A DNA stretch of 64,000 bases from an uncultured Candidatus Saccharibacteria bacterium (GCA_964446735.1 CAYUQB010000002.1:18516-82515), one strand, 5' to 3'; shown: positions 21,637 to 48,028, counted from the first letter of the stretch. Translations and numbers: made by a program. Notes: generated by a model from the sequence alone, not told the origin.

Positions 21637-21750
21637 ATGGCAGCAAAGAAGAAGGCCGCTAAGAAGTCGACAAAGCGCAAGACCGCAAAGAAGACGACGA
21701 AGAAGGCCGCAAAGAAGACCACCAAGCGCAAGACCGCAAAGCGCAAGTAA
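21637..21750 (+). CDS. 37-aa lysine-rich histone H1-like / nucleoid-associated small protein
   Basis: ATG 21637; encodes MAAKKKAAKKSTKRKTAKKTTKKAAKKTTKRKTAKRK (KKAA/TAKK repeats). Followed by a strong terminator. Not in the >=60-aa ORF track. Confidence 0.55.
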   Translation: MAAKKKAAKKSTKRKTAKKTTKKAAKKTTKRKTAKRK

Positions 21751-26787: not shown

Positions 26788-26851
26788 CAGATTTTTTTGT
26801 CCCCATATGAACATCTATCCGAACCGAGACAAGATAGCTTACACTTAGGCC

Positions 26852-27658
26852 ATGGATGAACTTATTCTCGATGACAAGAAATATCTCTCGTCAAAGCGCG
26901 CCGCCCAAGTCACTGGCTACGCGAAGGATTATGTAGGGCAACTCTGCCGCGAGGGCCGCATCACTGCCCGCCTTGTAGGGCGAAATTGGTACGTTCTTGA
27001 GGACTCACTTCTAGAACATCGATTTGGTGCAGAAGAAGCAGAAGAGAAAACGCAAAAACCTCCAGAAAAAAAGGTCCAGGAAACCTGGGGAGCTCCACGA
27101 TATACAGCAGAAGCGCCAATCTTAGTCCCAGAAATCCCCATAAAACAGGTACAGGAACCCGTTCAGGACGTCGCAGAGTCCTCAAAGGTGCTCGTAGACA
27201 TGCAATCTGCCTGGCAAGAATGGTTTGATCAGCAGGGAAATGAGGAGAAGCTCCTTCCTGATGCGAGCCCGATGCTTCTGGAGGCCTCTGAAGAACCTGT
27301 TTCTTTGCCTGCACCGGAAGCTGAGGAGGAGGTTCCGGTACATATTGACCGTCACAGGGAGCCTCTACAGACCTCAGAGACTGTTGTTGAGCAGCAGCGG
27401 TATATTCCCGCAACGATAACGAAAAGCTACGTACAGCCAAAAATAAGACATACAGGGGATAGCTACGGGCGGGGAGGCACAATGCGAGAGAAGAGAGGGG
27501 GTGTTACGCCGCTTATCCGGGTAGCACTACTTACGATTAGCGGGTTGGCCGTTACGATAACGGTCATAGGAAGTGGTTTGAGTGACGTATATCTTCGGGA
27601 CATCGCAAGCTTGCCAATAACGAGCTTTTTTGCAGGCGTAAAAGACATTGAAAAATAA
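26852..27658 (+). CDS. bitopic membrane protein: N-terminal excisionase-like HTH (HTH_17-like) module, acidic/Pro-rich linker, single C-terminal TM helix; short paralog of the giant protein N-terminus
   Basis: Residues 10-55 (LSSKRAAQVTGYAKDYVGQLCREGRITARLVGRNWYVLEDSLLE) align with residues 12-57 of the 4,937-aa protein (GY..DY..LCREG.I....GR.W.V...SLE). TM helix LIRVALLTISGLAVTITVIGSGL near C-terminus. Confidence 0.55.
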   Translation: MDELILDDKKYLSSKRAAQVTGYAKDYVGQLCREGRITARLVGRNWYVLEDSLLEHRFGAEEAEEKTQKPPEKKVQETWGAPRYTAEAPILVPEIPIKQVQEPVQDVAESSKVLVDMQSAWQEWFDQQGNEEKLLPDASPMLLEASEEPVSLPAPEAEEEVPVHIDRHREPLQTSETVVEQQRYIPATITKSYVQPKIRHTGDSYGRGGTMREKRGGVTPLIRVALLTISGLAVTITVIGSGLSDVYLRDIASLPITSFFAGVKDIEK

Positions 27659-27659
27659 A

Positions 27660-27688
27660 CTGAACTCGTCTCGTTCAGACGAGTTCAG
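27660..27688 (+). terminator. hairpin terminator (12-bp stem)
   Basis: CTGAACTCGTCT-CGTTC-AGACGAGTTCAG immediately after stop of 26852..27658. Confidence 0.55.
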
Positions 27689-28352
27689 CATTTATGATAG
27701 ATATCATTCTGAATCATCTTGAACACCAGAGTGAAGTAGAGAATCTACGGATCTAAGGATTTAAATCGTGAATCTAGTGCCAAAGTAGGCTGATTTAGCG
27801 TATCTCGTCAGTAATCGCTCAGAGTTGCGCTTTTCTTACATGTGGCAAATATCTCTCTCCATGGCGCAAAAGTGCATCGAGGGATGTTAAGTCTGGCGGG
27901 AGCAGGCTTAGGATGCATCGGAATGATCGAACAGAAACATAAAGCCATGGAAAATATTGTGCGCACTTATAACGAAGAAAATACAAAGCATTTATTAGTC
28001 TTTTCGGATGTTCGAATTGCCGAGTCTACGATTTAATCAAGGCGTGTAATCTCTTGGGTAGCTCCTCATTTGAGCAGAAGTGCTCGTAATTTCGCAAGAA
28101 ATCCTTTTAGAAAATATACAAAAGCGCAAATTAGGATCTCAAAGCTTCTCCAAATCAAATATGTGCATCATTTGCGTCAATCTTTCGAGTCTAGAGCGCA
28201 TTTCTAGCCCTGTTCAGGCATATATTCGCTGTGGAGTTGGTGATTGAAAGATTAATTTCCATAGCGATCGAAATCAGTCGCCTGATTGAACTTTCTACGA
28301 AAAATTTCTTGAGAAAACTTTCATTATTTATCCACAAAGGAAAGCGCGTCAG

Positions 28353-28390
28353 TATCCGAAATAGGAGATAGAATTTACTTAATTCGGATA
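28353..28390 (+). promoter_or_regulatory. inverted repeat spanning the 5' leader/RBS region of the giant gene
   Basis: TATCCGAA-N22-TTCGGATA enclosing AGGAG, ending 6 nt before ATG 28397. Confidence 0.3.
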
Positions 28391-28396
28391 TCCGAC

Positions 28397-31300
28397 ATGT
28401 CCCTTCCACTCGATAAAAATTTCATCCCAAATAAGGTAGCGAGTGAATTGTCCGGATACAACTCGGACTACATCGCTCGACTTTGTCGTGAAGGAAAAAT
28501 CGAGGGTACGCAAATCGGTCGCGCATGGTTCGTAAATCGCGAGTCGCTAGAAAAGTTCATCAAGCAACAGGACACGCGCAAGAAGGAAATCGCGCGTGAA
28601 CTCTCTGCAGCTCGCGAACGCGAGTATTCTGCACGTCAGAATGCCGCAACTGAAGTAAAAGAAGTCAAGGAAGTACGCATTTCTACGGAGACTTCGATTC
28701 CAAAGGCCAAGCTCATCCCTTCGCAGATTGCACCGCTGCAGGCAGTAATTCACCGACCAGTACATGTGCGCGTAAAAGCTCGCAGTCCGCGCCTTTCGGA
28801 GGTTCACCCAACACTTCGCCCAGGATTCGCACTCGCTCTTACTGCACTCGTCTTGATGATCTCTGTATACGCTGCGGAGAGCGGACTCGTAAACAATTTT
28901 GCCTCACGTGTCATTACGTCAGCAATGCGCACTCACGCTGATGCGCCTGAACTTCCGTTGCGAAGCGCGTTTGCCATTCGTGGCATTGGTGAACATCTTG
29001 CACTTGGGACTTCACATCTCGTCACCGGCGCGCCAAAAGTGTATGAACGTGGCCTCATGGCACTGGTGCGGACACCTGCAGATTCTGCTGCAGCTGTTGC
29101 AACGGTCACGACAACTCCGGAACACGGAATCGGTGAGCGCGTTGCGCTTACGACCTACCGTGGCATCACTCGCTTTTTCAGTAACGCTACCGACCGGCTC
29201 GCAGTCTTCTTTGGATTTAAAAGTCCGAACATCGCGGTGCTTCCATTCGAGGCTGCCAGCGCACTTCATCCCTCGACCAATCTTCCCGCACCAACATCAT
29301 CTGGTGAGTATCGACCCACGACGCAAGGTATTACCACCGTCAACTACCTCACGGGAGTTTCGAGTGAGTACGTCGATAGCTACGTCTCCTCGTATGTAAC
29401 CAATGCACTTCGTGGTGTACGCGAGCAGATCGGACGTGATGTGCTGGATAGTAATGCGGTAAAGCGCAGCCGTAGTTCATCGAGCGGAAGCTCTTCAGGT
29501 GGAGCAGCAACCTCGGTGAATGGCGCGGTGGTAGCAACCTCGCTCACGCTCTCTGGTATCACTGGTTCTACGCAGTGTCTCCAAGTTGATACTTCAGGCG
29601 TCGTGTCCGGGACAGGATCCGCCTGTGGTGCAGGCGGCAGCGGAATCACTGGGCTTAAGGGTCAGTATTCAAGTACACAGACAGGCGCAACTCAGACCTT
29701 CGCGACGTCGAGTGATACCAACCTCACACTTACAATCACTTCTTCAGGAGACACGCATACTTTCACGCCGGGTTGGACTGGCGTACTTTCAGTAGCACGG
29801 GGCGGGCTCGGGCTCTCTGCCGTTACTGCCAACGGACTCCTTATCGGAAATTCTGCAGGCACTGGGTACACAAGTGTTGCAACCAGCTCGCTCGGCCTTT
29901 CAACTTCCGACATCAGCGAAGGCAGCAATCTCTACTACACGACTGCACGCTTTGCTGCATCGCTCGCTGGTACTACCACTGACGCACTTGCTGAAGGAGC
30001 GATCAATCGGTACTACACTGACGCACGCGCACGCGCAGCCTACAGTACGACTGCAACTGGTCTCTCATACAGCAGTGCCAGTGGCGTACTCTCGCTCTCG
30101 AGCGGCTACAACATTCCACTCACCGCATCGACCACGAACTGGAATTCTTTCTACGACACACCCTCGACGCGTATCACTGCTGGTACCAATCTTTCCTGGA
30201 GCGGCAACACACTCAACGGTCCGGCTGACTCAACCATTCGAGGACTATTCTCAGGCACCTACCCAGTTAGCTACGACAGTGGCACGGGAGCCTTCAGTCT
30301 TGCGTTTGGTACCACTACTTCAAACACCTGGGCAGGCACACAGACGTTCACCAACACTCCAGTTCTCGGTACGCTCACCGGACTCGTAGGATCAAACAAC
30401 GGTAGCCTCTATCAAATCGCCACCTCTTCCAACTTCGTTACATCGATCGCGCAAAGTTTCGGTTCTGCACAGACCGGTGCCGTCACACTCGCAACAAGTT
30501 CTGCCGCGACCTGGAATGGAGTGACCTTCACTAACTCGATCACTAACTCTGGCGGCACGTTCACCTTCACGCCGGCACTCTCTGGTACGCTCGCGGTCGC
30601 AGGTGGCGGCACCGCCACCACCACCTTCTACAACGGTGGCGTGGTCTTCTCTGACGGCACCAAACTCACCCAAGCAGCCGCCGCAAGCAACTTCTTCTGG
30701 GACAACACCAACAACCGTCTTGGTCTTGGCACCTCTTCTCCATGGGGTCAGCTCTCGATCAATCCGAATGGCATTAGTGGACCAGCGTTTGCAATTGGCT
30801 CTTCTACCGACACCCTCTTCTCCATTACCAGTGGCGGACACATAACAATCGGCACATCCACACCCGCATCAACCAACGGAATAACCCTCACGACAACAGC
30901 AGGTACCGCAGCCCCGATCCTGTACATGTATCGAAACGATAGTTCAGTAACCGCAAGCGAGTCCCTGGGTGCAATTTACTTCGACAGTAACGATGGCCCG
31001 GTGAGTACAAACGATGCTGCGGTAGCTATCCTGGCCCAAGCCGCAGAAGTGCATGGAAGCACCGCGAAAGGTGGACAACTCATTTTCCAGACTAAATCGA
31101 TTGGAACAGGTCCTAATAGTAGTTCCGACGAACGTTTCCGAATTACCGCAAGTAATACCAGCGGTTTCAGTACCTCATCTCCGTATGCGACGCTCTCAAT
31201 TCACACGAACAAGGATGTAACGAATAGAACCCTTTTTGCAATCGGCTCATCGACAGCTTCCGCGACCTCAACGCTCTTTAGTATTACGAACACCGGTTCG

Positions 31301-34300
31301 ACTACTCTCTTCCAACTCCCAAGTTCGGTACTGACTACGAATGAGAATGGCACCATTGTCGGTACCACATCGGTTGGCATTACTTACGGCGGTACCGGCA
31401 TCACTAGCTACACTTCCGGTGATCTTCTCTACGCTAACAGCAGCGGCATCCTCGCAAAGCTTGGAATTGGTTCGGCCGGTCAGGTGCTCAAGGTCACCGG
31501 TGGACTACCTGTATGGGGTGCCGATCTTACGACTGGCGGCGGCGGCGGTGCCGGCGCGTGGGCAACAACGAGTGATAGTCTTGCTGTCTACCCGACCGAC
31601 ACTTCAGACGTCATCATTGTCGGCAACAGCGCGACTAGTACGCTCACCAGTATTTTCGAAGTGCATGGCAAGTCGTACTTCTCAAATTTCCTCGGTATCG
31701 GCACGACGAACCCTTCGACACAACTCTCGGTACAAGGTGATGCGCTCTTCTCGGGTAATCTCTCACTTGCAAACCTTACTGCAACTGGAACGATCTCAAC
31801 CACAAATCTCACGGTAGGTACCCTTAACGGACCACTTCATGCGAACAATGGCGTCGTTTCAGCAACCACGTCTATTGGTGTGCTTTACGGCGGTACAGGT
31901 CTTACGACCGCTCCATCGTACGGACAGCTTTTACTCGGTAACAGCAGTAGTGGCTATACACTCACCGCAACTTCTTCGTTGGGACTCCAGTCGGTTCTCC
32001 AGGGTACCCAAGGTCAGGTCGCATATTTCTCAGACACAAACACTGCGGTCGGTACCTCAAGCATTTTCATCGGAACAAATACGAATGTCGGTATCGGTTC
32101 CTCGTCGCCAAGCGCGAGACTAAGTATTCTCGGTGCAGATGCTGCATCTTCGGGAGCGACTGCACCCCATGCGCTGTATGTACGGGGTGGTACTGGTGGG
32201 TCGACTAGCGGGTTCGGTGGCCCCATAACACTTGTTGGAGGCGCGGCAGGGGTGGCGACCTCAAATGGAGGTACGGTGACCATTGTCTCTGGCTCGTCAT
32301 TTGCAGGACTGCCTGGGGCAGAAATCGAACTGACCGGTTCAGCGAATAGCGCTGGTGGTGGTCTCACGTTCACCGGTGGGAATGGCAGTATCCTTGGAGG
32401 CGGGTTCACATTCACTAGCGGAGATGGTCAGTCGGGCGGTTCATACTACTTCACCTCAGGCGATGGCTCCTTGAATGGTGGTGACTTCAACTTCACAAGT
32501 GGTGCCGCGACTTCTTCCGGAAGCGGTGGACAATTCACTTTCACAGGCGGTGTCGCAAGTTCTACAACTGCAAACGCAACGGGCGGTGGCTTTACCGTCA
32601 CCGGTGGAGCTGCAAGTTCTACGATCTCGACTGTCCACGGTGGTTCCATTCAACTGACCGGCGGCTCGGGTGGTACCGGTGCACTTACGGTAGGAAGTGG
32701 AGGGAATATTGTCCTAAACGGAGGTGCTGCGGGTGTCGCAGGCGGTTCGGTAGGGAACGTGCTTCTCGCTGGGCTACGTGGCAAGGTGGGTATCGGTTCA
32801 AGTAGTCCCTATGCGCTCCTCTCACTGCATGCTTCCAGCACCGCGACCACACCAATGTTGTTTGCAATTAGTTCTTCGACCTCTACGTTTGCGACGTCAT
32901 CGCTGTTCTCCATCAACAATGTCGGTTCTACCACCCTCTTCCAGCTTCCAAGTTCGGTGCTTACCACAAATCAGAATGGAACTATCGTCGGCACCACTTC
33001 AATTGGTGTTACGTACGGTGGTACTGGTCTCACGAGTGGCCCATCGTACGGCCAGTTGCTTGTAGGTAACGCGTCCGCTGGGTATTCACTCACTGCAACG
33101 AGTTCACTCGGACTGGTTACATCAGTGAACGCATCCGGTGGCACTACCGGTCTTTCATTCTCGGGCGGCCCCATCACCTCGTCAGGCACACTTACTCTTT
33201 CTGGGACACTTGGACTTGCGAACGGCGGCACCGCCACCACCACCTTCTACTCCGGTGGCGTGGTCTTCTCCGACGGTGCTCGCCTCACCCAAGCTTCCTC
33301 CACCAGTGACTTCTTCTGGGACTCAACTAACAAGCGTCTTGGTCTTGGCACGTCTACTCCATGGGGCCAACTCTCCATTAACCCCAATGGTATTAGTGGA
33401 CCAGCGTTTGCAATTGGCAGTACCACTAACACGAGCTTTGTGGTGACGAATGGGGGATATGTGGGGATTGGAAGCGCGGTGCCGACCAACGCGCTTACGG
33501 TTGTTGCGAGCTCAACTTCTGTGACGAGCACTTTCCCGTTTGACGACACACAGCTTGAAATTGCAGCAACCTCTTCAAGTTCCGGTTCACTCAATATTGG
33601 TTTGAATTCGAGACAATCACGCTACTACATAGTTGGTAACTCGGGCAATCTGACGTCCAACGATATGTATATTGGTGTTGACGGATCAAGTGATGGATTC
33701 GGAAAGGTTCACATCATCACCGGGTTTGCAGGTGGATCGGTACCACGTATTACTGCCACACGTGATGGTCAGGTGGGTATTGGTACGACTTCTCCCTACG
33801 CAAAATTCGCTGTTCACGCCGCTAATGCTGAAACCAATCGTGTCCTCTTTGCTATTGGTTCCTCAACCGCTTCCGCAACTACCACTCTCTTCTCTGTAAA
33901 CAACATCGGCTCCACAACGCTCTTCCAGCTTCCGAGTTCGGTACTGACTACGAATGAGAATGGCACGATTGTCGGTACCACATCGGTGGGCGTAACGTAC
34001 GGCGGTACGGGACTTTCAACAGCACCCGCCTATGGCCAGCTTCTGGTGGGTAACTCTAGCGGTGGGTATACCCTTACGGCAACCAGCTCACTTGGGCTTG
34101 GTACTGGTAATGGCACCGTCACTTCTGTAGATGCTTCAGGTGGCACTACCGGTCTTTCATTCTCGGGCGGCCCCATCACCTCGTCAGGCACACTTACTCT
34201 TTCTGGGACACTTGGACTTGCGAACGGCGGCACCGCCACCACCACCTTCTACTCCGGTGGCGTGGTCTTCTCCGACGGTGCTCGCCTCACGCAGGCATCT

Positions 34301-37300
34301 TCCACCGGTGACTTCTTCTGGGACTCAACCAACAAACGCCTGGGACTCGGTACCTCAACACCGTTTGCGAAACTTTCTGTCAATCAAAACACGAGCGGTC
34401 CAAGCACGATACCGGCCTTTGTCGTGGGTGCATCTGATTCAACGAAGTTTATCGTCACAGCAAGTGGAAATGTGGGTGTTGGAACTTCTTCCGCTGCGTA
34501 TACACTCGATGTAGGCGGGTTCGCAAACGTCGATAAATTCTCGGGCTACAAACAGGATACGTTCACCATCCTCACTGCATCGTCCACATCACTTTCAACA
34601 TTGGTCGGTATTAATGCAGGCGCGTCACTCACTCAAGGCGCTCGCTATGCAACCGTCCTTGGCTACGGCGCACTCCAGAACACAACGTCCGGCACCTATA
34701 ACACCGCAGTTGGCTATCAAACATTAAATGCGAACTCGACCGGTGCGCAGAACACTGCACTTGGTGCATTCGCACTCACAAATAATTTCACCGGCGCAGA
34801 CAATGTCGCACTTGGCTATGGTGCGAGCTACTTCAATGCATATGCGACGCGCACCGTTGCTATCGGTAGCGAAGCAGGTGAGGGCGTCGGCAACTATGCA
34901 AACCAGGGTGGAGTACTCGTAGGCTACAAGTCTGGCTTCAACCTGACCGATGGTTCCAACTACAATACACTTCTTGGCTACCAATCAGGCTTTGGTATCA
35001 CCACGGGTGCCAACAACATCATCATCGGTGCAGACTCTGATGGGAGTGGTGGAAACTCAAATCTCACCACCGGATCGGGAAATATTCAGATCGGGTACAA
35101 TATCTCGCTCCCAAGCGCGACCGCAAGCAATCAACTCAACATCGGAAATCTTATCTACGGTACCGGAGTGAGTGGCACGGCTTTTGTACCATCGACAGGT
35201 CGTATCGGTATCGCTTCTACGTCACCGTTCGCAAAGCTCTCAGTACATGCGAACAATGGAGATACTAACCCCGCGCTGTTTGCGATAGGTTCTTCAACAG
35301 CAAGTGCGACAACCACTCATTTCCTGGTCACGCGTACCGGCGAAGTCGGCATCGGTACTACTTCTCCGAGCGCGCAGCTTGCACTTTCCGGTGTATCAGG
35401 AACAACCGCAGCAGCACCGGATTTCCTAGGCCTGTTTGGAGGCACAGGAGGCGCGCCAGTCACCGGTGACGCTGGCGCTGGTTCGAGTGGCAGGATTGGT
35501 GCAGGTGCAGGTGGAGCGACAGCTAACGGGAATGGTGGGGCAGGCGGCTCGCTCACCTTCGCTGCCGGTACGGGCGGTGCGTCGTCTCAAACAACCGGTA
35601 TCTCCGGCGCAGGCGGTTCACTTAGCCTTTCGGCCGGTAACGGCGGTGATGGCAGTGAACTGGTGTCGACTCCTGGTAACGGCGGTGCGATTACCATTAC
35701 TGCTGGTTCTGCTGGAGGAAATGGAGCAGCATCTGGCGGTAGTGTGACTATCAATCCGGGTGCAAAGGGTACTACGGGGAGTGATGGAAACGTTCTCATC
35801 GCAACACTTCGTGGGAAAACCGGTATTGGTACTACTTCACCGTACGCAAAGCTCTCCATCCACTCAAATAATGGCGATACCAATAGGACGCTTTTTGCTA
35901 TCGGTTCTTCAACGGCTTCTGCCACGACCACACTCTTCAGTATTACGAACACTGGTGACGCAACACTTCTAGGTACTTCTACTGCTGCAGGTGGTTCCTT
36001 CACGAGACTGACAGTTGGTTCTGATTACTTCACTGATCTTACGGGCACTGGCCTTGCTCTTTCTGGAAGCGCACTTACCCTCGACACAGGAAATGCCAAC
36101 TCTTGGACCGGTACTCAAACGTTTAACACGGTGACCATCAATACTGGATATGTCTTCACCGTTGGAACACTGAATGGTCCTCTGCACGCCAACAACGGAG
36201 TTGTGGCGGCGACAACCTCTATCGGCGTTACGTACGGTGGTACAGGCCTCACGACTGCACCGAGTTACGGTCAAATTCTTGTGGGTAACGCGTCCTCCGG
36301 CTATACCCTCACCGCAACCTCATCACTTGGCCTCCCGACTGGTTCGGGTGCAGCAGGACGTGTCGCGTTCTGGGATGGTACGGGCAGTCTGTCCTCAAAT
36401 GCCAATTTCACTTTCTCCTCGACTAACAGTCAGTTCTCAATTCCAAATAATGGGTGGTATGCAATTGGTGGCAACCTCCTCGGATATGCTTCATCCACAA
36501 ATCAAGCGACGATCTTCGGTCTCGGTGCTGGCGGCAATAACGCAACCACAACTGGAGCCGGAAGTAATCTGACGGCAGTGGGATTCAATGCGCTTAATGC
36601 CATGACGACTGGAGCGAACAACACGGCGGTCGGTTCACTTGCGCTTAGAAGTGCCACAACTGGCGGTGCGAATACGGCGGTCGGTGCGAGTGCGCTCAGT
36701 GCACTTACTACGGGTGGCTTCAACACCGCAGTTGGCTACCTCGCGGGCACCAGCGTAACAACCGGAGCCGGCAACTCGATACTTGGTCACGATGCCGCAG
36801 CCTCACTCACTGTTGGTTGGAATAACACACTCATTGGTCAGTATGCTGGGTACACCATCACGACCGGGTCAGGTAACACCGTGCTTGGCGGTGTCGAAGA
36901 TACAGGAATAAGTAACCTTACGACAGGTGACAACAACATTGCCATTGGACTCAATATTCTGTTCGCGGACGGTACGGCGGATAACCAACTTAACATTGGT
37001 AACTTCATCTTCGGCACCATACCCGCCACAACGACAAACAGTTCACTTCAACTGCCGAAAACCGGCAAACTCGGTATCGCCACCTCTTCTCCGTACGCCA
37101 AACTTTCCATTCACGCGAATAACGGATCAACTGATACCACCCTCTTTGCGATCGGTTCTTCGACCGCAAGTGCTACCTCGACACTCTTTTCCGTTAGTAA
37201 TTCCGGCCAGCTCTCTTCGAATCTCTCGGGAACAACAACACTCTTGCGGGTCGCAGGTCGGGAATTCATCAAGGCGGATACCGCATCACTCAACCTCGCA

Positions 37301-40300
37301 CTCGGCTTTGATCCGCTTCGAGCGCTTACGACCGGAAGCGGGAACATAGCTATCGGTGAGAATGCTGGGTATGGAATTACCACCGGCACGTATAACACCA
37401 GCATCGGATACGGAACACAGAATCAAAACGGTCATTATAATGTGGCGCTCGGATACCAGACCGGCGGAGCTGGCAATAGAGCCGTGGCAGTCGGGTATAA
37501 CGCCTATTCGGATGGACAAGGTGGTATATCAATAGGTGCTGGTGCGAACGCGTTTGGAAGTTCAACTATTGCTGTCGGTTACGGGGCATACGCCAACAAC
37601 ACAGACGGTATTGCACTCGGTAGTGACGTGTTTTCATACGGAACCGCTGCGATCGTGATCGGTGCCTCTGCTTCAAGTGACTCGGGCGCCTCGAGCACTA
37701 TCGCTATCGGTTACAACGCATATGGGGGTGGCACAATTTCTAACACAGTCATTGGCGACACCGCTGGTTTCAACATAGCAGGAAGACGCAATCTTCTTAT
37801 CGGACCGACTGCGTTCGATCCCAATGGTGCTTCAGACGGTGGATTGAGTATTGGCAATCTCATTTTCGGTACACTTCCTGCCACGACCACGGTTGCCTCA
37901 CTACCGCTCACGGGCGCAATCGGTGTTGCTACCACTTCTCCGTATGCAACCCTTTCAGTTCACGCAAACAGCGGCTCAGTAAACACTACGCTCTTCGCGA
38001 TCGGTTCTTCGACCGCGAGTGCCACCTCGACTCTCTTCTCCATTAACAATATCGGCTCCACCACACTCTTCCGTCTCCCAAGTTCAGTCCTTACAACGAA
38101 TGAGAACGGCACAATCGTTGGCACCACATCTGTTGGTGTCACCTATGGCGGTACCGGCCTGGCGACGGCTCCTTCGTACGGTCAACTTCTCCTTGGAAAC
38201 GCATCAAGTGGGTATACACTCACGGCAACGTCCTCTCTCGGTATCGCTATCAGTGATACTACTGGTACGCTCAGTCTTGCTCGTGGCGGCACCGCCACCA
38301 CCACCTTCTACAACGGTGGCGTGGTCTTCTCTGACGGCACCAAACTCACCCAAGCAGCCGCCGCAAGCAACTTCTTCTGGGACAACACGAACAACCGTCT
38401 AGGGCTGGGTACCTCAAGTCCATGGGGCCAGCTCTCCATTAACCCCAATGGCATTAGTGGACCGGCGTTTGCCATCGGGAGTACCACGAGCACAAGTTTT
38501 GTGATTACTAACGCAGGATATGTGGGCATCGGGACGGCAACTCCACAAACCAGCCTCGATATTGATGGAGGTAATGTCCGTATAACGAATCTCTCGGGAA
38601 GTGTACAAAACCTGCTTTCACTCAATAACACGTCAGCGGGAACTGCGGCTGGAAACGCAATTGTATTTAACGGGCCCTCGAGTGTTCAGTATGGAAAAGT
38701 TGAGGTGGCCGCAGATAGTGCAACCAGTCAAACCTATCTTGCGCTCACGGTCCGTGGTGCGAGCGCTGCGTATGAAGCACTTCGTGCGGTGGGTTCGAGC
38801 GGGAGTATTGGTATCGGTACCACCACTCCGAAGTGGAAACTCACTGTTTCCACTTCGACTGCACCGCAACTCACCTTGACTGATGGCTCTGCCACTAATG
38901 CGCCCTTTAACTTCCGTGCCATTAACAACCTTTTGTACTTCTCGACCTCTTCGCCAACTACCTACGCTACCTCAACTCCGTTCTTAAGCTTCGACAGCTC
39001 TACTGCTTCGACCAGTATTCTGAGACTTGATGTGACGGGCACTGGAACCTCTACCTTTGCCAACGGTCTCAATATCGCCAATGGTTGCTATGCCGTGAAC
39101 GGTGTTTGCTTGGTCGGTACGTTCACCAACACGCTCGCTTCAGGCGGCACCGCCACCACCACCTTCTACAACGGTGGCGTGGTCTTCTCTGACGGCACCA
39201 AACTCACCCAAGCAGCCGCCGCAAGCAACTTCTTCTGGGACAACACGAACAACCGTCTCGGACTTGGAACATCGACACCATTTGGTCAGCTCTCCATCGA
39301 TTCGAACGGAATTACTGGTCCTGCGTTTGTTATTGGTTCATCAACCGCCACTCATCTGTTAGTTGAGAATAGTGGAAGAGTGGGTGTTGGTACTACCTCG
39401 CCTGCATCCGCGTATGGATTTAATGTCGGCACAAACTCGTATTTTGGAGCCACTACAACATTCGCTGGAGGTGCTGCTATCGGTGCATTTACCTCGGGGG
39501 GTAAGACAGGTACCTGGATTAATCTTCCAACGACTGGTCCGTCTGGTATTGGTACTGGCGGAGCAGGAAGTAACCCGTTTGTCGCATATGCTGCGTCAGC
39601 CACCGACTGGTTCAACGGTTCAATAATAGGTGACGCTGTGTATCGTAACGCAAACGGAACTCGTATTCTCATGGGCATTAGCAACAATAATGGTACTGCT
39701 CAACCACAGATTATTATTCAAGGTAACGCCTCATCTACCTGGCAAACCAGTTTCGGTACGACTTCACCATGGGGCATGGTCTCGATTGGTTCCCATGGGA
39801 TTGGAGACAAACCGGCGTTTGTCATTGGTTCGTCAACCGCGACTAATTTGATCGTCACCAATAGTGGACGAGTAGGTATTGGCACTAGCTCTCCTACCAG
39901 CATGCTCGCAGTTGGGGGAAACGTGACAATTAGTACTGCTGCAGCAAATAGCGGATTGCTGACCATCTACTCAGAGGACACAGGGTCCCTGTCCAATATG
40001 CAGGGTATCGTCGTTGCTGATCGTCAAAATGCCTACGGATCCTGGCAGACTCCTAGCGGGCTCGATGGAGTTCAGATCGGCGGCGGCGGCGAAGTAACCG
40101 CCTGGAATCAAGACTTCTTTATCAACTACTACTCCACCGGAGATGTGCGGCTTGCTCGCGGCGGCGGAGATGTGTTTGTAGGAAGCTCTCCACCGACAGC
40201 TCGGTTAAGCGTTAAGGGAAGCGCGGGTAGTACGACACCGGTGTTCCTCGTTTCTTCCTCCACGAACGCGAATCTATTTAATGTGCAATCGACTGGATTC

Positions 40301-43210
40301 GTGGGTGTCGGTTCTTCAACTCCGTGGGGTCAGTTCTCAGTGAATGCGTACGCAAGTACTGCACCAGCCTTCGTCGTCGGCAGCTCGAGTGCCACCAGTC
40401 TCGTGGTTTCTAACGGCGGCAATGTCGGTATCGGAACGAGTACGCCAGCACGCGCACTCCACGTCGCAAACTCAGGTGCCAGCTCACAATTCCTCCTCGA
40501 GGATACGGCGGCAGCTGCTGATCAACACATCGGTTCGATTGGGTTCTCACGCGGTGTCTTTAGCTTCAACACCCTTACCGATTCACTCGCAACGACCACT
40601 CGCCTCACCATCGACACCAGTGGCAATGTAGGTATCGCAACGTCTACACCGACCGCAAAGTTCGCGCTTACCGGAAGTGGCACCGGAACCGGTCGTCTCT
40701 TCGTACTTGCGGACTCGGCCAATACCGAACGACTCACCATTCTTGATAACGGAAAGGTAGGTATTGGTACAACCAGTCCAAACTGGCTCCTCTCGGTGTC
40801 AGGAACATCCGGCACTCGCTTCAAGACAACATCGGCTATCCAGAATGCGTTTGTCGTCGAGAATGCGGTTGGCACATCGACATTCCAAGTGGACACGCTT
40901 GATAACAGCGATTCCATCTTCTCGGTCGCGACCTCGTCGGGCAGTACGTACTTCTACGTTGGTGCGTCAGGACGCATTGGCGTAGGCACCACAACGCCGG
41001 GCGCTGCCCTCGATGTCTATAATGGTGCGCTGTGCGTTGATGACAGCTCGCCGACTTGTCAGGACGCTGCGCGTACCGCCGGTACAATCTATGCAGTTTC
41101 AACCTCCATTACCGGCATCGACCTTGCCGAGCGATACCCGACCAAGGATGCAACGCTTGCAGCAGCCGAGATCGTAGCGTTCGATCCTGCAAATCCGGTG
41201 TTTGTGAAGCGTGCTGCTTCAGGCAGCAGTTCGTTCCTCGGTGTCGTATCCACCCAGCCGGGTATTCTCCTCGGCGGCTATAACGACTCCTTATATAAGG
41301 ACGAGGTGAAAGTACCGGTGGCCCTTGCTGGTCGTGTCCCTGTTGCCGTTACGATGGAGGGAGGTGCTATCGACGTTGGTGACTACATCACCATCTCCAG
41401 TACGCCGGGTGTGGGAAAGAAGGCGACTGCGTCAGGCCAGACCATCGGCGTCGCGCTTGAGCCGGCAACCGCTGATGGCACTATCCAGGTATACATCAAA
41501 CCTGAGTATGTATTTGTGCCAAGCCAGCTCGCGATTGATGCTGATACAGGAAATGTCGGTATCGGAGTTGAGAACCCAACTCGTAAGCTTGAAGTGGCAG
41601 GAGATGCATTCTTCTCGGGCTTCCTTACTTCAGATCGATTTGTTGCATCCGGCTCGGGCACTAGCACGCTCCCACGAATTACCACCAATGCCATCGATCT
41701 TGCCGGCCAGTACCTCACTTCGGTTACCGGTACCGGACTCGAACTTTCGGGCGGCATACTCTCGATCGCAACGTCTTCGCTCACCAGTAATCTCTTCGCG
41801 CAGGGCGGCAATTCCTTTGGAACCACGACGGTGCTTGGCACTCGCGATACGCAGGATCTTGCCTTCATGACTGCAAGTTCGACTCGGCTCACTATTACCG
41901 CAGCCGGTAAGGTGGGTATTGGCACCGCGGCTCCCGCGCATGCGCTTGAAGTGGTTGGTGATGTTGCTGCCATTAGCTTCGTAAACACCTCAACTCGTAC
42001 TGCGAAGGAAGATATTACCTATCTCACGCAGGAAGATACGAAGGGTATTCTCGACACGCTTCGAGGCCTCAAGGTTGCCGAGTACCACTACAAGATTGAA
42101 AATCAATCAAATCCGCTCCGGCTTGGACTCATCGCAGAAGAGGCGCCTACTGAAGTACTCTCGCTTGATGGTAAGGGAGTTGATATCTATAAACTCGCAA
42201 CCTTCACCCTTGCCGGTGTCCAGTCGCTTGCAGGCAAAGTCGACACGCTCGAAGCAAAGGTTGCGGATATCGACGCACGACTCGCGCAGCTCGGGGGAGT
42301 AACACTTGCAACTACCAGTACCAGCACGAAAATCGCATCAAGCGGTGTCGGCCTGGGTGACCTTCCAGACGCACTACGCAGCTTCGGAGCATTCATTGGT
42401 AATGGCATCGCACAATTCCAAACACTCGTTGCACGACAATTTGTCGCAAGCAAGGATGCGGACGGCACGTCTTCTGCAGGTGAGGGAACCGTTGCATCAA
42501 CCACCAACTCGACCACCATTGAGAACAAACTGGTACGAGCATCAAGCAAGATCTTCATCACGTTCACGAGCCCAGTGGAGGGTGGGTGGTATCTGGCTGA
42601 TAAGAAGGAGGGAAGCTTCCGGGTGGTGCTGAAGAGCATGCCGGCTGAAGATGTCACGTTTGACTACTTCTTCATCCAGACCGAAGGGCAGCTCGCGGCG
42701 TCCGGCGCAGCGTCTGGCACCACAGACGGCAGCGATACGGAGCCGCCGGTGATTACGCTCAATGGTGAGACCTCTACGTACGTGCCAGTGGGGGAGACAT
42801 ACGTCGATCCTGGCGTGTCAGCGGTGGATGCAGTTGATGGCCCAGTTAGGTACAACCGACAGATAAATGGACAAACGATGGATATCAATGCTCCGCTTGA
42901 TACCTCGCACGAAGCGACCTATACGCTTACCTACGTTGCCTTCGATGCAAAGGGTAACTACGCAAGTGCCACTCGCACCGTCATTGTGGCAGCGCCCGGT
43001 GGTGGGGGAGCAGTACTTCCCGGTGCAACTCCCGAGCCGACACCTGCCCCAGAACCTGCACCGATACCTGAACCTACACCTGAACCTACACCTGAACCTG
43101 CACCAGAGCCAGCTCCGGAGCCAACACCAACTCCCGAGCCGACGCCTGCCCCAGAACCTGCACCGGAACCGGCTCCTGAACCAGCGCCATCCCCAGCTCT
43201 AGAAGGATGA
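28397..43210 (+). CDS. giant (4,937-aa) membrane-anchored fibre/adhesin-like protein with four parts: N-terminal HTH_17-like module and TM helix; Gly/Thr/Ser-rich modular repeat fibre; C-terminal peptidase-S74 intramolecular chaperone domain; DUF5011/Ig-like domain and (PEPT)n tail
   Basis: Single uninterrupted ORF of 14,814 nt. TM helix PGFALALTALVLMISVYAA (about aa 140-160). At least seven copies of the module LFAIGSSTASATSTLFSI-N-GSTTLFQLPSSVLTTNENGTIVGTTSVGVTYGGTGL..YGQLLVGN..GYTLTATSSLGL. NTAxG/AIG repeats (about 34.6-35.2 kb and 36.5-37.9 kb) resemble YadA-head/phage tail-fibre repeats. aa about 4532-4650 STRTAKEDITYL..LRGLKVAEYHYK..RLGLIAEEAP..LEAKVADIDARLAQL match the Peptidase_S74 (endosialidase chaperone) profile including the Ser-x4-Lys dyad. 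aa about 4780-4865 PVITLNGETSTYVPVGETYVDPGVSAVDAVDG...TYTLTYVAFDAKGNYASATRTVIV match DUF5011. C-terminus PEPTPAPEPAPIPEPTPEPTPEP... Confidence 0.85.
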   Translation: MSLPLDKNFIPNKVASELSGYNSDYIARLCREGKIEGTQIGRAWFVNRESLEKFIKQQDTRKKEIARELSAAREREYSARQNAATEVKEVKEVRISTETSIPKAKLIPSQIAPLQAVIHRPVHVRVKARSPRLSEVHPTLRPGFALALTALVLMISVYAAESGLVNNFASRVITSAMRTHADAPELPLRSAFAIRGIGEHLALGTSHLVTGAPKVYERGLMALVRTPADSAAAVATVTTTPEHGIGERVALTTYRGITRFFSNATDRLAVFFGFKSPNIAVLPFEAASALHPSTNLPAPTSSGEYRPTTQGITTVNYLTGVSSEYVDSYVSSYVTNALRGVREQIGRDVLDSNAVKRSRSSSSGSSSGGAATSVNGAVVATSLTLSGITGSTQCLQVDTSGVVSGTGSACGAGGSGITGLKGQYSSTQTGATQTFATSSDTNLTLTITSSGDTHTFTPGWTGVLSVARGGLGLSAVTANGLLIGNSAGTGYTSVATSSLGLSTSDISEGSNLYYTTARFAASLAGTTTDALAEGAINRYYTDARARAAYSTTATGLSYSSASGVLSLSSGYNIPLTASTTNWNSFYDTPSTRITAGTNLSWSGNTLNGPADSTIRGLFSGTYPVSYDSGTGAFSLAFGTTTSNTWAGTQTFTNTPVLGTLTGLVGSNNGSLYQIATSSNFVTSIAQSFGSAQTGAVTLATSSAATWNGVTFTNSITNSGGTFTFTPALSGTLAVAGGGTATTTFYNGGVVFSDGTKLTQAAAASNFFWDNTNNRLGLGTSSPWGQLSINPNGISGPAFAIGSSTDTLFSITSGGHITIGTSTPASTNGITLTTTAGTAAPILYMYRNDSSVTASESLGAIYFDSNDGPVSTNDAAVAILAQAAEVHGSTAKGGQLIFQTKSIGTGPNSSSDERFRITASNTSGFSTSSPYATLSIHTNKDVTNRTLFAIGSSTASATSTLFSITNTGSTTLFQLPSSVLTTNENGTIVGTTSVGITYGGTGITSYTSGDLLYANSSGILAKLGIGSAGQVLKVTGGLPVWGADLTTGGGGGAGAWATTSDSLAVYPTDTSDVIIVGNSATSTLTSIFEVHGKSYFSNFLGIGTTNPSTQLSVQGDALFSGNLSLANLTATGTISTTNLTVGTLNGPLHANNGVVSATTSIGVLYGGTGLTTAPSYGQLLLGNSSSGYTLTATSSLGLQSVLQGTQGQVAYFSDTNTAVGTSSIFIGTNTNVGIGSSSPSARLSILGADAASSGATAPHALYVRGGTGGSTSGFGGPITLVGGAAGVATSNGGTVTIVSGSSFAGLPGAEIELTGSANSAGGGLTFTGGNGSILGGGFTFTSGDGQSGGSYYFTSGDGSLNGGDFNFTSGAATSSGSGGQFTFTGGVASSTTANATGGGFTVTGGAASSTISTVHGGSIQLTGGSGGTGALTVGSGGNIVLNGGAAGVAGGSVGNVLLAGLRGKVGIGSSSPYALLSLHASSTATTPMLFAISSSTSTFATSSLFSINNVGSTTLFQLPSSVLTTNQNGTIVGTTSIGVTYGGTGLTSGPSYGQLLVGNASAGYSLTATSSLGLVTSVNASGGTTGLSFSGGPITSSGTLTLSGTLGLANGGTATTTFYSGGVVFSDGARLTQASSTSDFFWDSTNKRLGLGTSTPWGQLSINPNGISGPAFAIGSTTNTSFVVTNGGYVGIGSAVPTNALTVVASSTSVTSTFPFDDTQLEIAATSSSSGSLNIGLNSRQSRYYIVGNSGNLTSNDMYIGVDGSSDGFGKVHIITGFAGGSVPRITATRDGQVGIGTTSPYAKFAVHAANAETNRVLFAIGSSTASATTTLFSVNNIGSTTLFQLPSSVLTTNENGTIVGTTSVGVTYGGTGLSTAPAYGQLLVGNSSGGYTLTATSSLGLGTGNGTVTSVDASGGTTGLSFSGGPITSSGTLTLSGTLGLANGGTATTTFYSGGVVFSDGARLTQASSTGDFFWDSTNKRLGLGTSTPFAKLSVNQNTSGPSTIPAFVVGASDSTKFIVTASGNVGVGTSSAAYTLDVGGFANVDKFSGYKQDTFTILTASSTSLSTLVGINAGASLTQGARYATVLGYGALQNTTSGTYNTAVGYQTLNANSTGAQNTALGAFALTNNFTGADNVALGYGASYFNAYATRTVAIGSEAGEGVGNYANQGGVLVGYKSGFNLTDGSNYNTLLGYQSGFGITTGANNIIIGADSDGSGGNSNLTTGSGNIQIGYNISLPSATASNQLNIGNLIYGTGVSGTAFVPSTGRIGIASTSPFAKLSVHANNGDTNPALFAIGSSTASATTTHFLVTRTGEVGIGTTSPSAQLALSGVSGTTAAAPDFLGLFGGTGGAPVTGDAGAGSSGRIGAGAGGATANGNGGAGGSLTFAAGTGGASSQTTGISGAGGSLSLSAGNGGDGSELVSTPGNGGAITITAGSAGGNGAASGGSVTINPGAKGTTGSDGNVLIATLRGKTGIGTTSPYAKLSIHSNNGDTNRTLFAIGSSTASATTTLFSITNTGDATLLGTSTAAGGSFTRLTVGSDYFTDLTGTGLALSGSALTLDTGNANSWTGTQTFNTVTINTGYVFTVGTLNGPLHANNGVVAATTSIGVTYGGTGLTTAPSYGQILVGNASSGYTLTATSSLGLPTGSGAAGRVAFWDGTGSLSSNANFTFSSTNSQFSIPNNGWYAIGGNLLGYASSTNQATIFGLGAGGNNATTTGAGSNLTAVGFNALNAMTTGANNTAVGSLALRSATTGGANTAVGASALSALTTGGFNTAVGYLAGTSVTTGAGNSILGHDAAASLTVGWNNTLIGQYAGYTITTGSGNTVLGGVEDTGISNLTTGDNNIAIGLNILFADGTADNQLNIGNFIFGTIPATTTNSSLQLPKTGKLGIATSSPYAKLSIHANNGSTDTTLFAIGSSTASATSTLFSVSNSGQLSSNLSGTTTLLRVAGREFIKADTASLNLALGFDPLRALTTGSGNIAIGENAGYGITTGTYNTSIGYGTQNQNGHYNVALGYQTGGAGNRAVAVGYNAYSDGQGGISIGAGANAFGSSTIAVGYGAYANNTDGIALGSDVFSYGTAAIVIGASASSDSGASSTIAIGYNAYGGGTISNTVIGDTAGFNIAGRRNLLIGPTAFDPNGASDGGLSIGNLIFGTLPATTTVASLPLTGAIGVATTSPYATLSVHANSGSVNTTLFAIGSSTASATSTLFSINNIGSTTLFRLPSSVLTTNENGTIVGTTSVGVTYGGTGLATAPSYGQLLLGNASSGYTLTATSSLGIAISDTTGTLSLARGGTATTTFYNGGVVFSDGTKLTQAAAASNFFWDNTNNRLGLGTSSPWGQLSINPNGISGPAFAIGSTTSTSFVITNAGYVGIGTATPQTSLDIDGGNVRITNLSGSVQNLLSLNNTSAGTAAGNAIVFNGPSSVQYGKVEVAADSATSQTYLALTVRGASAAYEALRAVGSSGSIGIGTTTPKWKLTVSTSTAPQLTLTDGSATNAPFNFRAINNLLYFSTSSPTTYATSTPFLSFDSSTASTSILRLDVTGTGTSTFANGLNIANGCYAVNGVCLVGTFTNTLASGGTATTTFYNGGVVFSDGTKLTQAAAASNFFWDNTNNRLGLGTSTPFGQLSIDSNGITGPAFVIGSSTATHLLVENSGRVGVGTTSPASAYGFNVGTNSYFGATTTFAGGAAIGAFTSGGKTGTWINLPTTGPSGIGTGGAGSNPFVAYAASATDWFNGSIIGDAVYRNANGTRILMGISNNNGTAQPQIIIQGNASSTWQTSFGTTSPWGMVSIGSHGIGDKPAFVIGSSTATNLIVTNSGRVGIGTSSPTSMLAVGGNVTISTAAANSGLLTIYSEDTGSLSNMQGIVVADRQNAYGSWQTPSGLDGVQIGGGGEVTAWNQDFFINYYSTGDVRLARGGGDVFVGSSPPTARLSVKGSAGSTTPVFLVSSSTNANLFNVQSTGFVGVGSSTPWGQFSVNAYASTAPAFVVGSSSATSLVVSNGGNVGIGTSTPARALHVANSGASSQFLLEDTAAAADQHIGSIGFSRGVFSFNTLTDSLATTTRLTIDTSGNVGIATSTPTAKFALTGSGTGTGRLFVLADSANTERLTILDNGKVGIGTTSPNWLLSVSGTSGTRFKTTSAIQNAFVVENAVGTSTFQVDTLDNSDSIFSVATSSGSTYFYVGASGRIGVGTTTPGAALDVYNGALCVDDSSPTCQDAARTAGTIYAVSTSITGIDLAERYPTKDATLAAAEIVAFDPANPVFVKRAASGSSSFLGVVSTQPGILLGGYNDSLYKDEVKVPVALAGRVPVAVTMEGGAIDVGDYITISSTPGVGKKATASGQTIGVALEPATADGTIQVYIKPEYVFVPSQLAIDADTGNVGIGVENPTRKLEVAGDAFFSGFLTSDRFVASGSGTSTLPRITTNAIDLAGQYLTSVTGTGLELSGGILSIATSSLTSNLFAQGGNSFGTTTVLGTRDTQDLAFMTASSTRLTITAAGKVGIGTAAPAHALEVVGDVAAISFVNTSTRTAKEDITYLTQEDTKGILDTLRGLKVAEYHYKIENQSNPLRLGLIAEEAPTEVLSLDGKGVDIYKLATFTLAGVQSLAGKVDTLEAKVADIDARLAQLGGVTLATTSTSTKIASSGVGLGDLPDALRSFGAFIGNGIAQFQTLVARQFVASKDADGTSSAGEGTVASTTNSTTIENKLVRASSKIFITFTSPVEGGWYLADKKEGSFRVVLKSMPAEDVTFDYFFIQTEGQLAASGAASGTTDGSDTEPPVITLNGETSTYVPVGETYVDPGVSAVDAVDGPVRYNRQINGQTMDINAPLDTSHEATYTLTYVAFDAKGNYASATRTVIVAAPGGGGAVLPGATPEPTPAPEPAPIPEPTPEPTPEPAPEPAPEPTPTPEPTPAPEPAPEPAPEPAPSPALEG
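30605..30720 (+). repeat. 116-bp near-perfect direct repeat family, copy 1 of 3 (inside giant ORF)
   Basis: GGCGGCACCGCCACCACCACCTTCTACAACGGTGGCGTGGTCTTCTCTGACGGCACCAAACTCACCCAAGCAGCCGCCGCAAGCAACTTCTTCTGGGACAACAC(C/G)AACAACCGTCT. One mismatch versus copies at 38285..38400 and 39143..39258. Confidence 0.85.
33137..33288 (+). repeat. 152-bp perfect direct repeat, copy 1 (inside giant ORF)
   Basis: Identical to 34139..34290 by direct comparison; encodes GGTTGLSFSGGPITSSGTLTLSGTLGLANGGTATTTFYSGGVVFSDGARL. Confidence 0.9.
34139..34290 (+). repeat. 152-bp perfect direct repeat, copy 2 (inside giant ORF)
   Basis: Identical to 33137..33288; spacing 1,002 bp (334 codons), one protein repeat module. 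Confidence 0.9.
38285..38400 (+). repeat. 116-bp direct repeat family, copy 2 of 3
   Basis: Identical to 39143..39258 over this span; one mismatch versus 30605..30720. Confidence 0.85.
39143..39258 (+). repeat. 116-bp direct repeat family, copy 3 of 3
   Basis: See copies 1 and 2. Confidence 0.85.
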
Positions 43211-43257
43211 TTTACGCTATACTTATTTATGACGTTCGTCTCACCAACCACCTCACC

Positions 43258-48025: not shown

Positions 48026-48028
48026 CTC

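Follow-up and report, generated by a model that had tools for sequence, protein, structure and literature searches.

What connects a small membrane protein to a giant surface protein when their genes lie next to each other and begin with the same domain? The question is raised by a 64,000-nucleotide stretch of DNA from an uncultured Candidatus Saccharibacteria bacterium (GCA_964446735.1, CAYUQB010000002.1:18516-82515; the whole stretch is called the window here), which carries on its plus strand a short open reading frame (ORF) of 268 aa (26852-27658) and a giant one of 4937 aa (28397-43210). A preliminary description had seen in the two a tandem of modules, each made of a helix-turn-helix (HTH), a linker and a transmembrane (TM) helix, and had proposed that the short protein may be a regulator or assembly partner of the giant one, or a decoy. 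Of these roles, the fold of the shared domain and the operator-like words around both genes favour that of a regulator, acting via DNA: at a probability of roughly 45%, the two proteins would form a pair of membrane-anchored transcription regulators or DNA tethers acting on their own locus. A pure anchoring or assembly function is less favoured, and neither mutual binding of the two proteins nor a decoy role of the short one is supported as stated.

The shared N-terminal motif is borne out by pairwise and by profile alignment. In BLASTP, the two N-termini align over 46 aa at 43% identity (E 2e-13), and in a six-frame search of the whole window they retrieve only one another (E 3e-10 and 1e-11), the runner-up match for either having E > 0.2. 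Profile-profile comparison of the two families gives a probability of 98.5% and an E of 1.5e-15, spanning just 47 columns, which are those of the HTH; since the homology is confined to these columns, the HTHs are paralogous and the linkers and TM helices only analogous. The proposed paralogy of entire modules thus holds for the HTH and fails for the remainder: the short linker comprises about 160 aa, is acidic (net charge -11 in the window, median -18 in 70 species) and has conserved motifs of its own, whereas the giant linker comprises about 80 aa, is basic (+8) and begins with a long helix. The layout itself was correctly described. Each protein has a charged linker and then exactly one predicted TM helix (aa 221-239 of 268 and aa 142-160 of 4937; 220-240 and 138-162 in the AlphaFold models), and the short one continues for only about 28-30 residues past it, leaving no ectodomain. 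Because basic residues precede both TM helices, the positive-inside rule places both HTHs in the cytoplasm, as had been supposed.

Both HTHs are predicted to have the fold of DNA-binding proteins. AlphaFold models them as E-E-H-H-E-E-H at a predicted local distance difference test (pLDDT) score above 92, and Foldseek matches both to Xis, TraN, BldC and RdfS at probabilities of 0.97-1.00. The best structural matches are Xis of the mycobacteriophage Pukovnik (rmsd, root-mean-square deviation, 1.6 Å over 44 columns for the short HTH), pIP501 TraN, BldC, RdfS and Tn916 Xis, with GlnR-DNA and RacA-DNA (5i44) in addition for the giant; all of those found for either model are DNA-binding or DNA-bound proteins. 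At the sequence level, the giant-type profile finds TraN/AM32 in the PDB (hmmsearch, E 2e-4), and the matches in PHROGs are to 'DNA binding protein' and excisionase families. Pfam HTH_17 gives 23.1 bits for the short protein, 26.8 for the giant N-terminus and 22.7 for the full-length giant, against a curated cut-off of 27; the relative P0146 exceeds this cut-off with 29.8 bits, and a precomputed PF12728 match is present in many relatives. The two models part after the domain: in the giant, the winged HTH (aa 9-47) passes uninterrupted into a helix (aa 48-95), followed by a disordered basic stretch and the TM helix, while the model of the short protein has no dimerisation helix after the HTH.

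The doubt whether the short ORF is conserved at all is answered by 1,492 relatives, found in a search among 5.8 billion proteins and aligned over their full length. The best 120 of these have 255-375 aa, and for most of them the alignment covers 90-100% of the query, with identities of 33-57%; where a name is given, it is Parcubacteria, Patescibacteria or Paceibacterota. In an alignment of 106 members, 24 of the first 59 columns are invariant and 18 nearly so; further conserved sites are W79-P82-Y84-E87-P93, M117-Q118-A120-W121-W124-F125, and G262 in the tail. The AlphaFold model built with the family alignment shows the winged HTH at pLDDT 92-97, a helix at 107-132 at pLDDT 87 and the TM helix at 220-240, the remainder being disordered. 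A single TM helix near the C-terminus is predicted in all 70 species, with a median of 30 residues after it, as in tail-anchored proteins. By its sequences, then, this is a real and strongly conserved family of Paceibacteria with a C-terminal tail anchor.

The giant protein combines its N-terminal TM helix with a Peptidase_S74 domain, a Bact_surface_Ig-like domain and PHROG tail-fibre matches (the S74 region matches tail fiber protein phrog_18983, E 4.7e-13), and is therefore read as a type-II-anchored, phage-tail-fibre-like surface protein. Its ectodomain is repetitive and rich in T, S and G, and the C-terminal tail past the Ig-like domain is rich in Pro, Glu, Thr and Ala. In the relative P0146, Peptidase_S74 scores 74.3 bits; by analogy with other proteins of this family, the giant would be a trimeric fibre, and autocatalytic cleavage may release its C-terminal part. 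The giant-type N-module heads 1,196 cluster representatives (E up to 1e-10) of many lengths, the longest having 7,275 aa; these came from an exhaustive HMMER search, which was needed to find homologues, word-indexed searches with the giant N-terminus yielding only a few fragments. A search of IMG/VR for relatives of the N-module found none; for this reason, and because the prophage of the window begins only at about 46 kb, a prophage origin of the gene was rejected. So was a role as a defence-system gene, PADLOC yielding no more than weak similarity to mad1, a small HTH protein (E 0.0012). Within the ectodomain (window 30000-41000) there are numerous near-identical repeats, e.g. ...LFAIGSSTASATSTLFSI.N.GSTTLFQLPSSVLTTNENGTIVGTTSVG.TYGGTGL.... 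The GC skew is negative along the giant gene, and the maximum of the cumulative skew near 28 kb is thus a result of the composition of this gene and no replication landmark.

The two genes recur together well outside the window, in more than 70 species, and the pair is conserved across Paceibacteria. One genome per GTDB species was scanned; relatives of the short protein are encoded in 225 species, and 80 loci were retained, of which five are short of downstream DNA, leaving 75 evaluable. In 74 of the 75, a same-strand, HTH-headed ORF lies downstream of the short gene, with a gap of 0.3-1 kb to the HTH-headed large gene, and the co-occurrence that the preliminary description had suggested looking for is also seen in 15 of 15 metagenome loci retrieved by DNA motif. 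Hidden Markov models (HMMs) separate the partners cleanly: on the short-type HMM, short proteins reach 110-137 bits and downstream ORFs 20-53, and on the giant-type HMM 39-53 and 95-155, respectively. Contigs with distant members of the short family (37-40% identity) keep the same gene order, which runs Wzy-TPR, MurB, SecA, Obg, GatB, short gene, gap, large HTH_17 protein and, where the DNA extends that far, GAPDH; the large proteins on these contigs have 1,839 to about 4,300 aa. The sole exception among the 75 is locus L080, whose large protein (11009-14698) has no HTH, its N-terminus (MDSLFEK...) leading straight into the TM helix. This protein begins with MDSLFEKHAKSMAGFLRSRFFVLPIAIF..., i.e. 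with the usual first residues, the HTH having been lost; the locus retains the short gene, the word TCTCGTCTCG and the box TTATCCCCA. Two large paralogues elsewhere carry tandem double HTHs before the TM helix (L007, 20022-20897; L053, 13594-14598).

Adjacency alone is no proof of a partnership, as the whole block is syntenic. The same data can accordingly be read as no partnership at all, the two being neighbours through block synteny, the HTH-TM N-terminus a common, lineage-specific head of membrane proteins (it could be a folded, charged N-domain that fixes the N-in/C-out topology), and the role of the short protein an unrelated one. The conservation of Wzy-MurB-SecA-Obg-GatB-short-big-GAPDH as a block fits this reading, as do the spread of the giant-type N-module over 1,196 representative proteins of many lengths, the extra module paralogues found elsewhere in the loci, and the separate transcription units with their different motifs. 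It is nonetheless quite unlikely: a topology determinant needs no near-invariant recognition helix and wing, the two HTH sub-families are nearer to each other (about 45-50 bits on each other's HMMs) than to the generic HTH_17 of Pfam (23-27 bits), the genes share a promoter style, with no Shine-Dalgarno word and with a spacer word that has an inverted copy downstream, and the two remain neighbours even in loci with a small or replaced downstream gene (L011, L058, L037).

The regulatory reading rests in large part on short words in the non-coding DNA, which were compared in 70 species. At the short gene, CRAGNCRAGA occurs at -60 to -1 in 50 of the 70; in the window it takes the form CGAGACAAGA (family consensus CGAGNCGAGA), and the word, CGAG-N-CGAGA, is a short direct repeat. 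A TAnnnT hexamer ends 4-7 nt before the ATG in 68 species (TATACT 35 times, TATAAT 14 times), and a Shine-Dalgarno-like word upstream of the gene is found in none of the 70; with the -10 hexamer this close to the ATG and no such word between, the mRNA of the short gene is probably leaderless. At 5-20 nt beyond the stop codon, 68 of 70 species have the word TCTCGTCTCG, matched at no fewer than 8 of its 10 positions. The window copy is part of a hairpin whose left arm and loop carry CTCGTCTCG, the reverse complement of the promoter word. When a position weight matrix (PWM) is derived from the post-stop copies, it also detects the promoter copy, which lies on the opposite strand, in 20 of the 70 loci; the stray matches in 1.14 Mb number 5. 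Because many species have a degenerate right arm (all 7 pairs form in just 7 species, and at most 4 in 17), the conserved element is the word and not the hairpin. Further copies of TCTCGTCTCG about 1.8 kb upstream were ruled out as coding sequence of Obg (HLVSAEQE). Having promoter-like and hairpin elements of its own, the short gene constitutes a transcription unit separate from that of the giant gene, and the two genes, said to follow each other directly, do so in order only, with 738 bp between them.

The region between the genes is AT-rich (GC 0.38 vs 0.53 for the loci) and has a median length of 597 bp in 71 species. It contains no tRNA or Rfam match and no conserved small ORF, and a non-coding RNA or small ORF in the 738-bp spacer of the window was rejected on these grounds; its middle is conserved among close relatives alone (blastn and phmmer between spacers). 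The words at its two ends and at the short-gene promoter, by comparison with shuffled controls, are conserved far above expectation. At the downstream end, the giant promoter has a constant order of elements (28328-28396 in the window): a TTATCC(A/C)CA box, CCGAAAT, a -10-like hexamer, and the 21-mer TAGTTAATTCGGATATCCGAC. The box, as TATCCMCA, is present in 68 of 70 giant promoters. The second element, TATCCGAAAT in the window, is an inverted copy of AATTCGGATA, and the 21-mer, which contains TCGGATATCCGA, is matched at 17 or more of its 21 positions in 62 of 70 species, at a spacing that is fixed relative to the -10 hexamer and not to the start codon (start-codon offsets are 0, 8-11 or 16-18 nt). 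In the window, TTCGGATATCCGAC occurs once. Among 241 million metagenome records, there are 15 exact matches to the 21-mer, all of them at this locus: 14 stand right before a giant-type HTH ORF and the fifteenth is truncated by the end of its contig; the short gene lies upstream of 13. Likewise, a 16-mer PWM of the giant word finds 61 own sites and a single other one in 1.14 Mb, which belongs to a duplicated promoter fragment in L049 (11059-11196), where the giant promoter and 40 initial codons are repeated some 240 bp ahead of the real gene. Among the 70 species, the recognition helix of the giant and the central bases of its motif both vary; their co-variation was not used as evidence, any apparent link being confounded by phylogeny.

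Could these words act as RNA? In such a scheme, TTCGGAUAUCCGAC, located at the extreme 5' end of the giant transcript, and UCUCGUCUCG, located in the 3' untranslated region of the short one, would stabilise the mRNA or control its translation; the HTH might bind them while still nascent and so keep the 15-kb mRNA at the membrane. The giant word does track the -10 hexamer rather than the start codon, which should put it where the mRNA begins, Shine-Dalgarno words are absent, and folding is more stable in the window sequences than in shuffled controls (z -5.9 and -3.9). Yet RNA covariation is absent both from the long-range stem CCGAAAT/AATTCGG and from the local TCGG/CCGA hairpin, the latter being a weak one of 4 bp (-4.7 kcal/mol, z -1.35); the right arm of the 3' hairpin is often missing; the promoter word of the short gene lies 5' of the -10 hexamer, so that it is untranscribed from that promoter; and the known relatives of the fold bind double-stranded DNA. 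A role at the RNA level is thus very improbable. With no covariation and with the right arm so often gone, what is conserved is sequence, as expected for protein-DNA recognition, and the words look like protein-binding DNA sites rather than RNA structure.

One lineage links the HTH to the words more closely. In L011 (11226-11330) and L014 (3971-4075), the protein at the giant position has a short-type recognition helix, YLGQL[C/A]KEG, and its promoter carries, in place of the TCCGA-type words, the short-type word GACAAGAA, followed by TAGAAT and an inverted ACTTGTC. This is suggestive of a recognition helix and a DNA word that were swapped together. The gene at the giant position is small or truncated in these loci (549 aa in L011), and less DNA separates it from the short gene (about 120 bp in L014). 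A further parallel comes from the architecture of the sites. MerR and RacA dimerise and read palindromes; similarly, the HTH that lacks a following helix, that of the short protein, would go with a direct repeat, and the HTH with a 48-residue helix, that of the giant, with a palindrome.

The swap also bears on a different reading of the HTHs, as RodZ-like adaptors that have lost DNA binding and dock to each other or to a shared cytoplasmic partner, such as the cytoskeleton or the secretion or insertion machinery. The short protein would then position the giant fibre or help to assemble it, or compete as a decoy, and the DNA words would be read by other factors or be core promoter elements. An HTH, a linker and a single TM helix are indeed the architecture of RodZ, and there is weak NCBIfam similarity to the magnetosome protein MamR; W79-P82-Y84-P93 and the helix DMQSAWQEWF (pLDDT 87), set in a disordered linker, resemble partner-binding motifs; the opposite charges of the linkers (-11 and +8) could mediate an interaction; and a near-invariant HTH in the short family is equally what a conserved protein interface would produce. 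The adaptor reading leaves unexplained, however, both the locus-specific, near-invariant promoter words and the helix-to-word swap in L011 and L014, the close structural relatives all bind DNA, and neither an XRE-type HTH nor a RodZ_C domain is found with Pfam or NCBIfam. We regard it as rather unlikely.

If the two proteins are regulators or tethers of their own locus, the following mechanism can be envisaged. The short HTH, monomer-like as in Xis and BldC, would recognise CGAGNCGAGA in the spacer of its own promoter and, inverted, after its stop codon. The giant HTH with its 48-residue helix would bind the palindrome TTCGGATATCCGAC at about +1 of its own promoter, probably as an oligomer, and also the inverted CCGAAAT upstream of the -10 hexamer. 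The candidate operators are those at window positions 26825-26834, 27665-27673, 28353-28362 and 28383-28396. We infer this pairing of proteins with sites, and either activation or repression would be possible. Binding would feed back on the transcription of a very costly 15-kb gene; being due to membrane proteins, it would also hold the locus at the membrane, where transcription, translation and Sec/SRP insertion of the 4,937-residue chain could be coupled (transertion).

Several considerations weigh against this proposal. The operator-like words could be read by other factors, DNA binding by either protein being a prediction, and RodZ is a precedent for an HTH before a TM helix that acts as a protein-binding module. 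Both window proteins score slightly under the HTH_17 cut-off, and, counted from their sequences, the HTH cores are only mildly basic (about +4 in the short protein and about +1 in the giant). The CCGAAAT and AATTCGG half-sites lie some 26 bp apart, which is unusual for a simple dimer; variants of the motif appear to track HTH sub-groups, yet shared ancestry could explain that; and the helix-to-word swap is based on one lineage. In L080, and thus in at least one lineage, the giant HTH is dispensable. Lastly, the block from Wzy to GAPDH is syntenic in every sampled locus, and adjacency alone is therefore weak evidence of functional coupling. A bolder form of the proposal, which we think unlikely, makes the giant fibre itself a transmembrane transcription factor: its HTH and the tail-anchored paralogue would bind the operators of its own gene and hold this 15-kb gene at the membrane for co-transcriptional and co-translational insertion, and could couple events at the fibre (host contact, tension, shedding) to expression.

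By function, the closest known systems are the ToxR-type regulators and RacA, by fold Xis, BldC and TraN, and by architecture RodZ is also similar. Like the ToxR type (CadC, ToxR/TcpP, VtrA/VtrB, ChiS/TfoS), the giant has, from N- to C-terminus, a cytoplasmic domain predicted to bind DNA, a single TM helix and an extracytoplasmic region; the last of these is missing from the short protein. Membrane-anchored regulators of this type draw their target locus to the membrane, and they have been proposed to take part in transertion (PMC9977878); two of them can cooperate at one promoter (PMC11856585), and DNA binding directs their localisation (PMC6320335). The differences are nonetheless considerable: ToxR-type proteins have an OmpR-type winged helix (Trans_reg_C), which is not found here, its place being taken by an excisionase/MerR-like HTH_17; their ectodomain is a small sensor, whereas that of the giant is a tail-fibre-like structure of about 4,770 aa; and the partner in the present case is tail-anchored without any ectodomain, DNA binding being only predicted.

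RacA of Bacillus subtilis resembles the giant in having a MerR-like winged HTH followed by a long helix or coiled coil, and it tethers DNA to the cell envelope. It binds short palindromes. In contrast to the giant, to which it has no detectable sequence relationship, it is soluble, reaches the membrane through DivIVA and has many origin-proximal sites, where the words described here belong to a single locus. Among the best structural matches of both HTHs (TraN being found by sequence as well), Xis and BldC share with the short protein the absence of a dimerisation helix, and TraN has an internal double HTH like the tandem HTHs of some paralogues; Xis, BldC, RdfS and TraN are, however, small, soluble proteins that act in recombination, development or conjugation, none of them fused to a TM helix or a surface protein. 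RodZ, a bitopic protein, shares the cytoplasmic HTH at the N-terminus, the linker and the single TM helix, but its XRE-type HTH, periplasmic RodZ_C domain and partner MreB have no counterpart in what was found. Of the MerR family, the winged HTH with a long dimerisation helix is present in the giant only (helix 48-95); the effector region is absent, a disordered linker and the TM helix following instead, and where MerR operators have a dyad in a spacer of 19-20 bp, the spacer here is about 17 bp, with no clear -35 element, and the conserved words, though situated in the spacer region, form no compact dyad there. Phage tail fibres and spikes with Peptidase_S74 have the chaperone domain and the PHROG tail-fibre matches in common with the giant, which is instead a chromosomal core gene at a fixed housekeeping position, TM-anchored and HTH-headed. 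To judge by their domains, the proteins are therefore not of the ToxR family, for want of an OmpR-type domain, not RodZ, having neither an XRE-type HTH nor RodZ_C, and not canonical MerR regulators, as they have no effector domain. In the literature, no description was found of an excisionase-type HTH combined with a TM helix and a tail-fibre-like ectodomain, nor of a tail-anchored paralogue of such a protein.

Table 1. Positions of the two genes, their domains and the non-coding elements in the window (wHTH, winged HTH).
Feature	Position	Strand	Details
Operator-like word CGAGACAAGA (family consensus CGAGNCGAGA)	26825..26834	+	Upstream half of the short-gene promoter spacer
-10-like hexamer TACACT	26840..26845	+	6 nt before the short-gene ATG
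Short gene	26852..27658	+	268 aa: wHTH aa 1-58, W79-P82-Y84-P93, helix 107-132 (DMQSAWQEWF), acidic disordered linker, predicted tail-anchor TM 220-240, tail of ~28 aa
Excisionase/MerR-like winged HTH of the short protein (aa 8-58)	26873..27025	+	Near-invariant in the family; pLDDT 92-97
Hairpin CTGAACTCGTC-TCGTTCA-GACGAGTTCAG	27660..27688	+	2 nt past the short-gene stop; dG -18.8 kcal/mol, z -5.9
CTCGTCTCG	27665-27673	+	Within left arm and loop of the hairpin; reverse complement of the promoter word
AT-rich spacer between the genes	27690..28300	.	Sequence not conserved
TTATCCACA box, DnaA-box-like	28328..28336	+	Single copy, fixed at -69 or -79 from the giant start codon
TATCCGAAAT (family consensus CCGAAAT)	28353..28362	+	Just 5' of the -10-like hexamer; alignment of 66 promoters
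-10-like hexamer TAGAAT of the giant gene	28369..28374	+	TATTAT, TAAAAT or TAAACT in other species
TTCGGATATCCGAC, candidate operator at ~+1	28383..28396	+	Holds the perfect 12-bp palindrome TCGGATATCCGA; ends 1 nt before the giant ATG
Giant gene	28397..43210	+	4937 aa: wHTH aa 9-47, helix 48-95, basic disordered linker, TM 138-162, ectodomain ~4,770 aa
HTH and long helix of the giant (aa 9-95)	28421..28681	+	pLDDT 97-98 up to ~aa 80
Peptidase_S74 intramolecular chaperone (aa ~4532-4583)	41990..42145	+	Pfam 23.7 bits vs cut-off 22
Bact_surface_Ig-like domain (aa 4786-4864)	42752..42988	+	Pfam E 5.9e-13

The DnaA-box-like element of the giant promoter is not confined to it. In the window, TTATCCACA, a perfect DnaA-box word, occurs five times against 0.7 expected (21494, 28328, 45848, 47833 on the minus strand, and 47978). 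About 50 loci also have it roughly 5.4 kb before the short gene, where a canonical promoter, TTACAC-N18-GATAAT, follows 14 nt further on and precedes a small Lys-rich ORF and SecA, and the promoter of the short gene has a related box, TTATGCACA, TTGTGCACA or TGTTCATAA. The element may be a lineage-wide upstream promoter element or a site of DnaA as a transcription factor. A replication origin in the AT-rich spacer was rejected: the box is single and at a fixed -69/-79, there is no cluster, and the same box is present at the promoter upstream of SecA. In the three largest records, the pair locus lies 15-50 kb from one record end (L074, OY969413.1, a 993 kb chromosome, at 967-988 kb; L003, a 645-kb contig, at 606-627 kb; L004, a 622-kb contig, at 571-592 kb), and the pair would be near the replication origin if these records start at dnaA.

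Other features of the neighbourhood are as follows. Right upstream of secA (window 21637-21750), a 37-aa basic ORF rich in Lys, Ala and Thr (MAAKKKAAKKSTKRKTAKKTTKKAAKKTTKRKTAKRK) is followed by a terminator-like hairpin; small ORFs of 57-67 aa are called at its position in related loci, and it could be a histone-H1-like nucleoid protein. Directly after the giant gene, an ORF of 447 aa (window 43207-44550), whose ATG overlaps the giant stop, has a signal-peptide-like N-terminus and a T/S/G-rich sequence; it has no Pfam, NCBIfam or PADLOC match and no homologue in any related locus, and in related loci such as L005 GAPDH directly follows the big gene, with no such ORF between. At 46000-64000 of the window, beside the GAPDH gene, a phage-like region sets in with a sharp drop in GC (0.40-0.48 vs 0.49-0.56 upstream), its ORFs matching AAA_24, Phage_rep_O, ParB_N-N6_N4 DNA methylase and SU10 portal; a prophage or a mis-joined phage contig is the probable explanation.

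The genomes of Patescibacteria (the candidate phyla radiation, CPR) are tiny, but in this lineage a single giant surface protein takes up 1-2% of the coding capacity. CPR bacteria are mostly uncultured, and directly testable hypotheses derived from their sequences are scarce; the locus provides a conserved two-gene module, domains that can be expressed separately (aa 1-65 of the short protein and aa 1-100 of the giant) and 3-4 candidate operators, and thereby makes the binding of membrane-anchored, excisionase-type HTHs to their own promoters testable in vitro. Should the proteins not bind, the module would be a candidate for a RodZ-like cytoplasmic docking system for surface fibres. Should they bind, the class of membrane-anchored regulators would be extended to another DNA-binding fold, another phylum and a structural fibre protein, and a natural system would be at hand for the gene-to-membrane tethering (transertion) of very long genes; and if the fibre were itself the transcription factor, there would be a direct mechanical or occupancy link from the attachment organelle of an episymbiont to its DNA.

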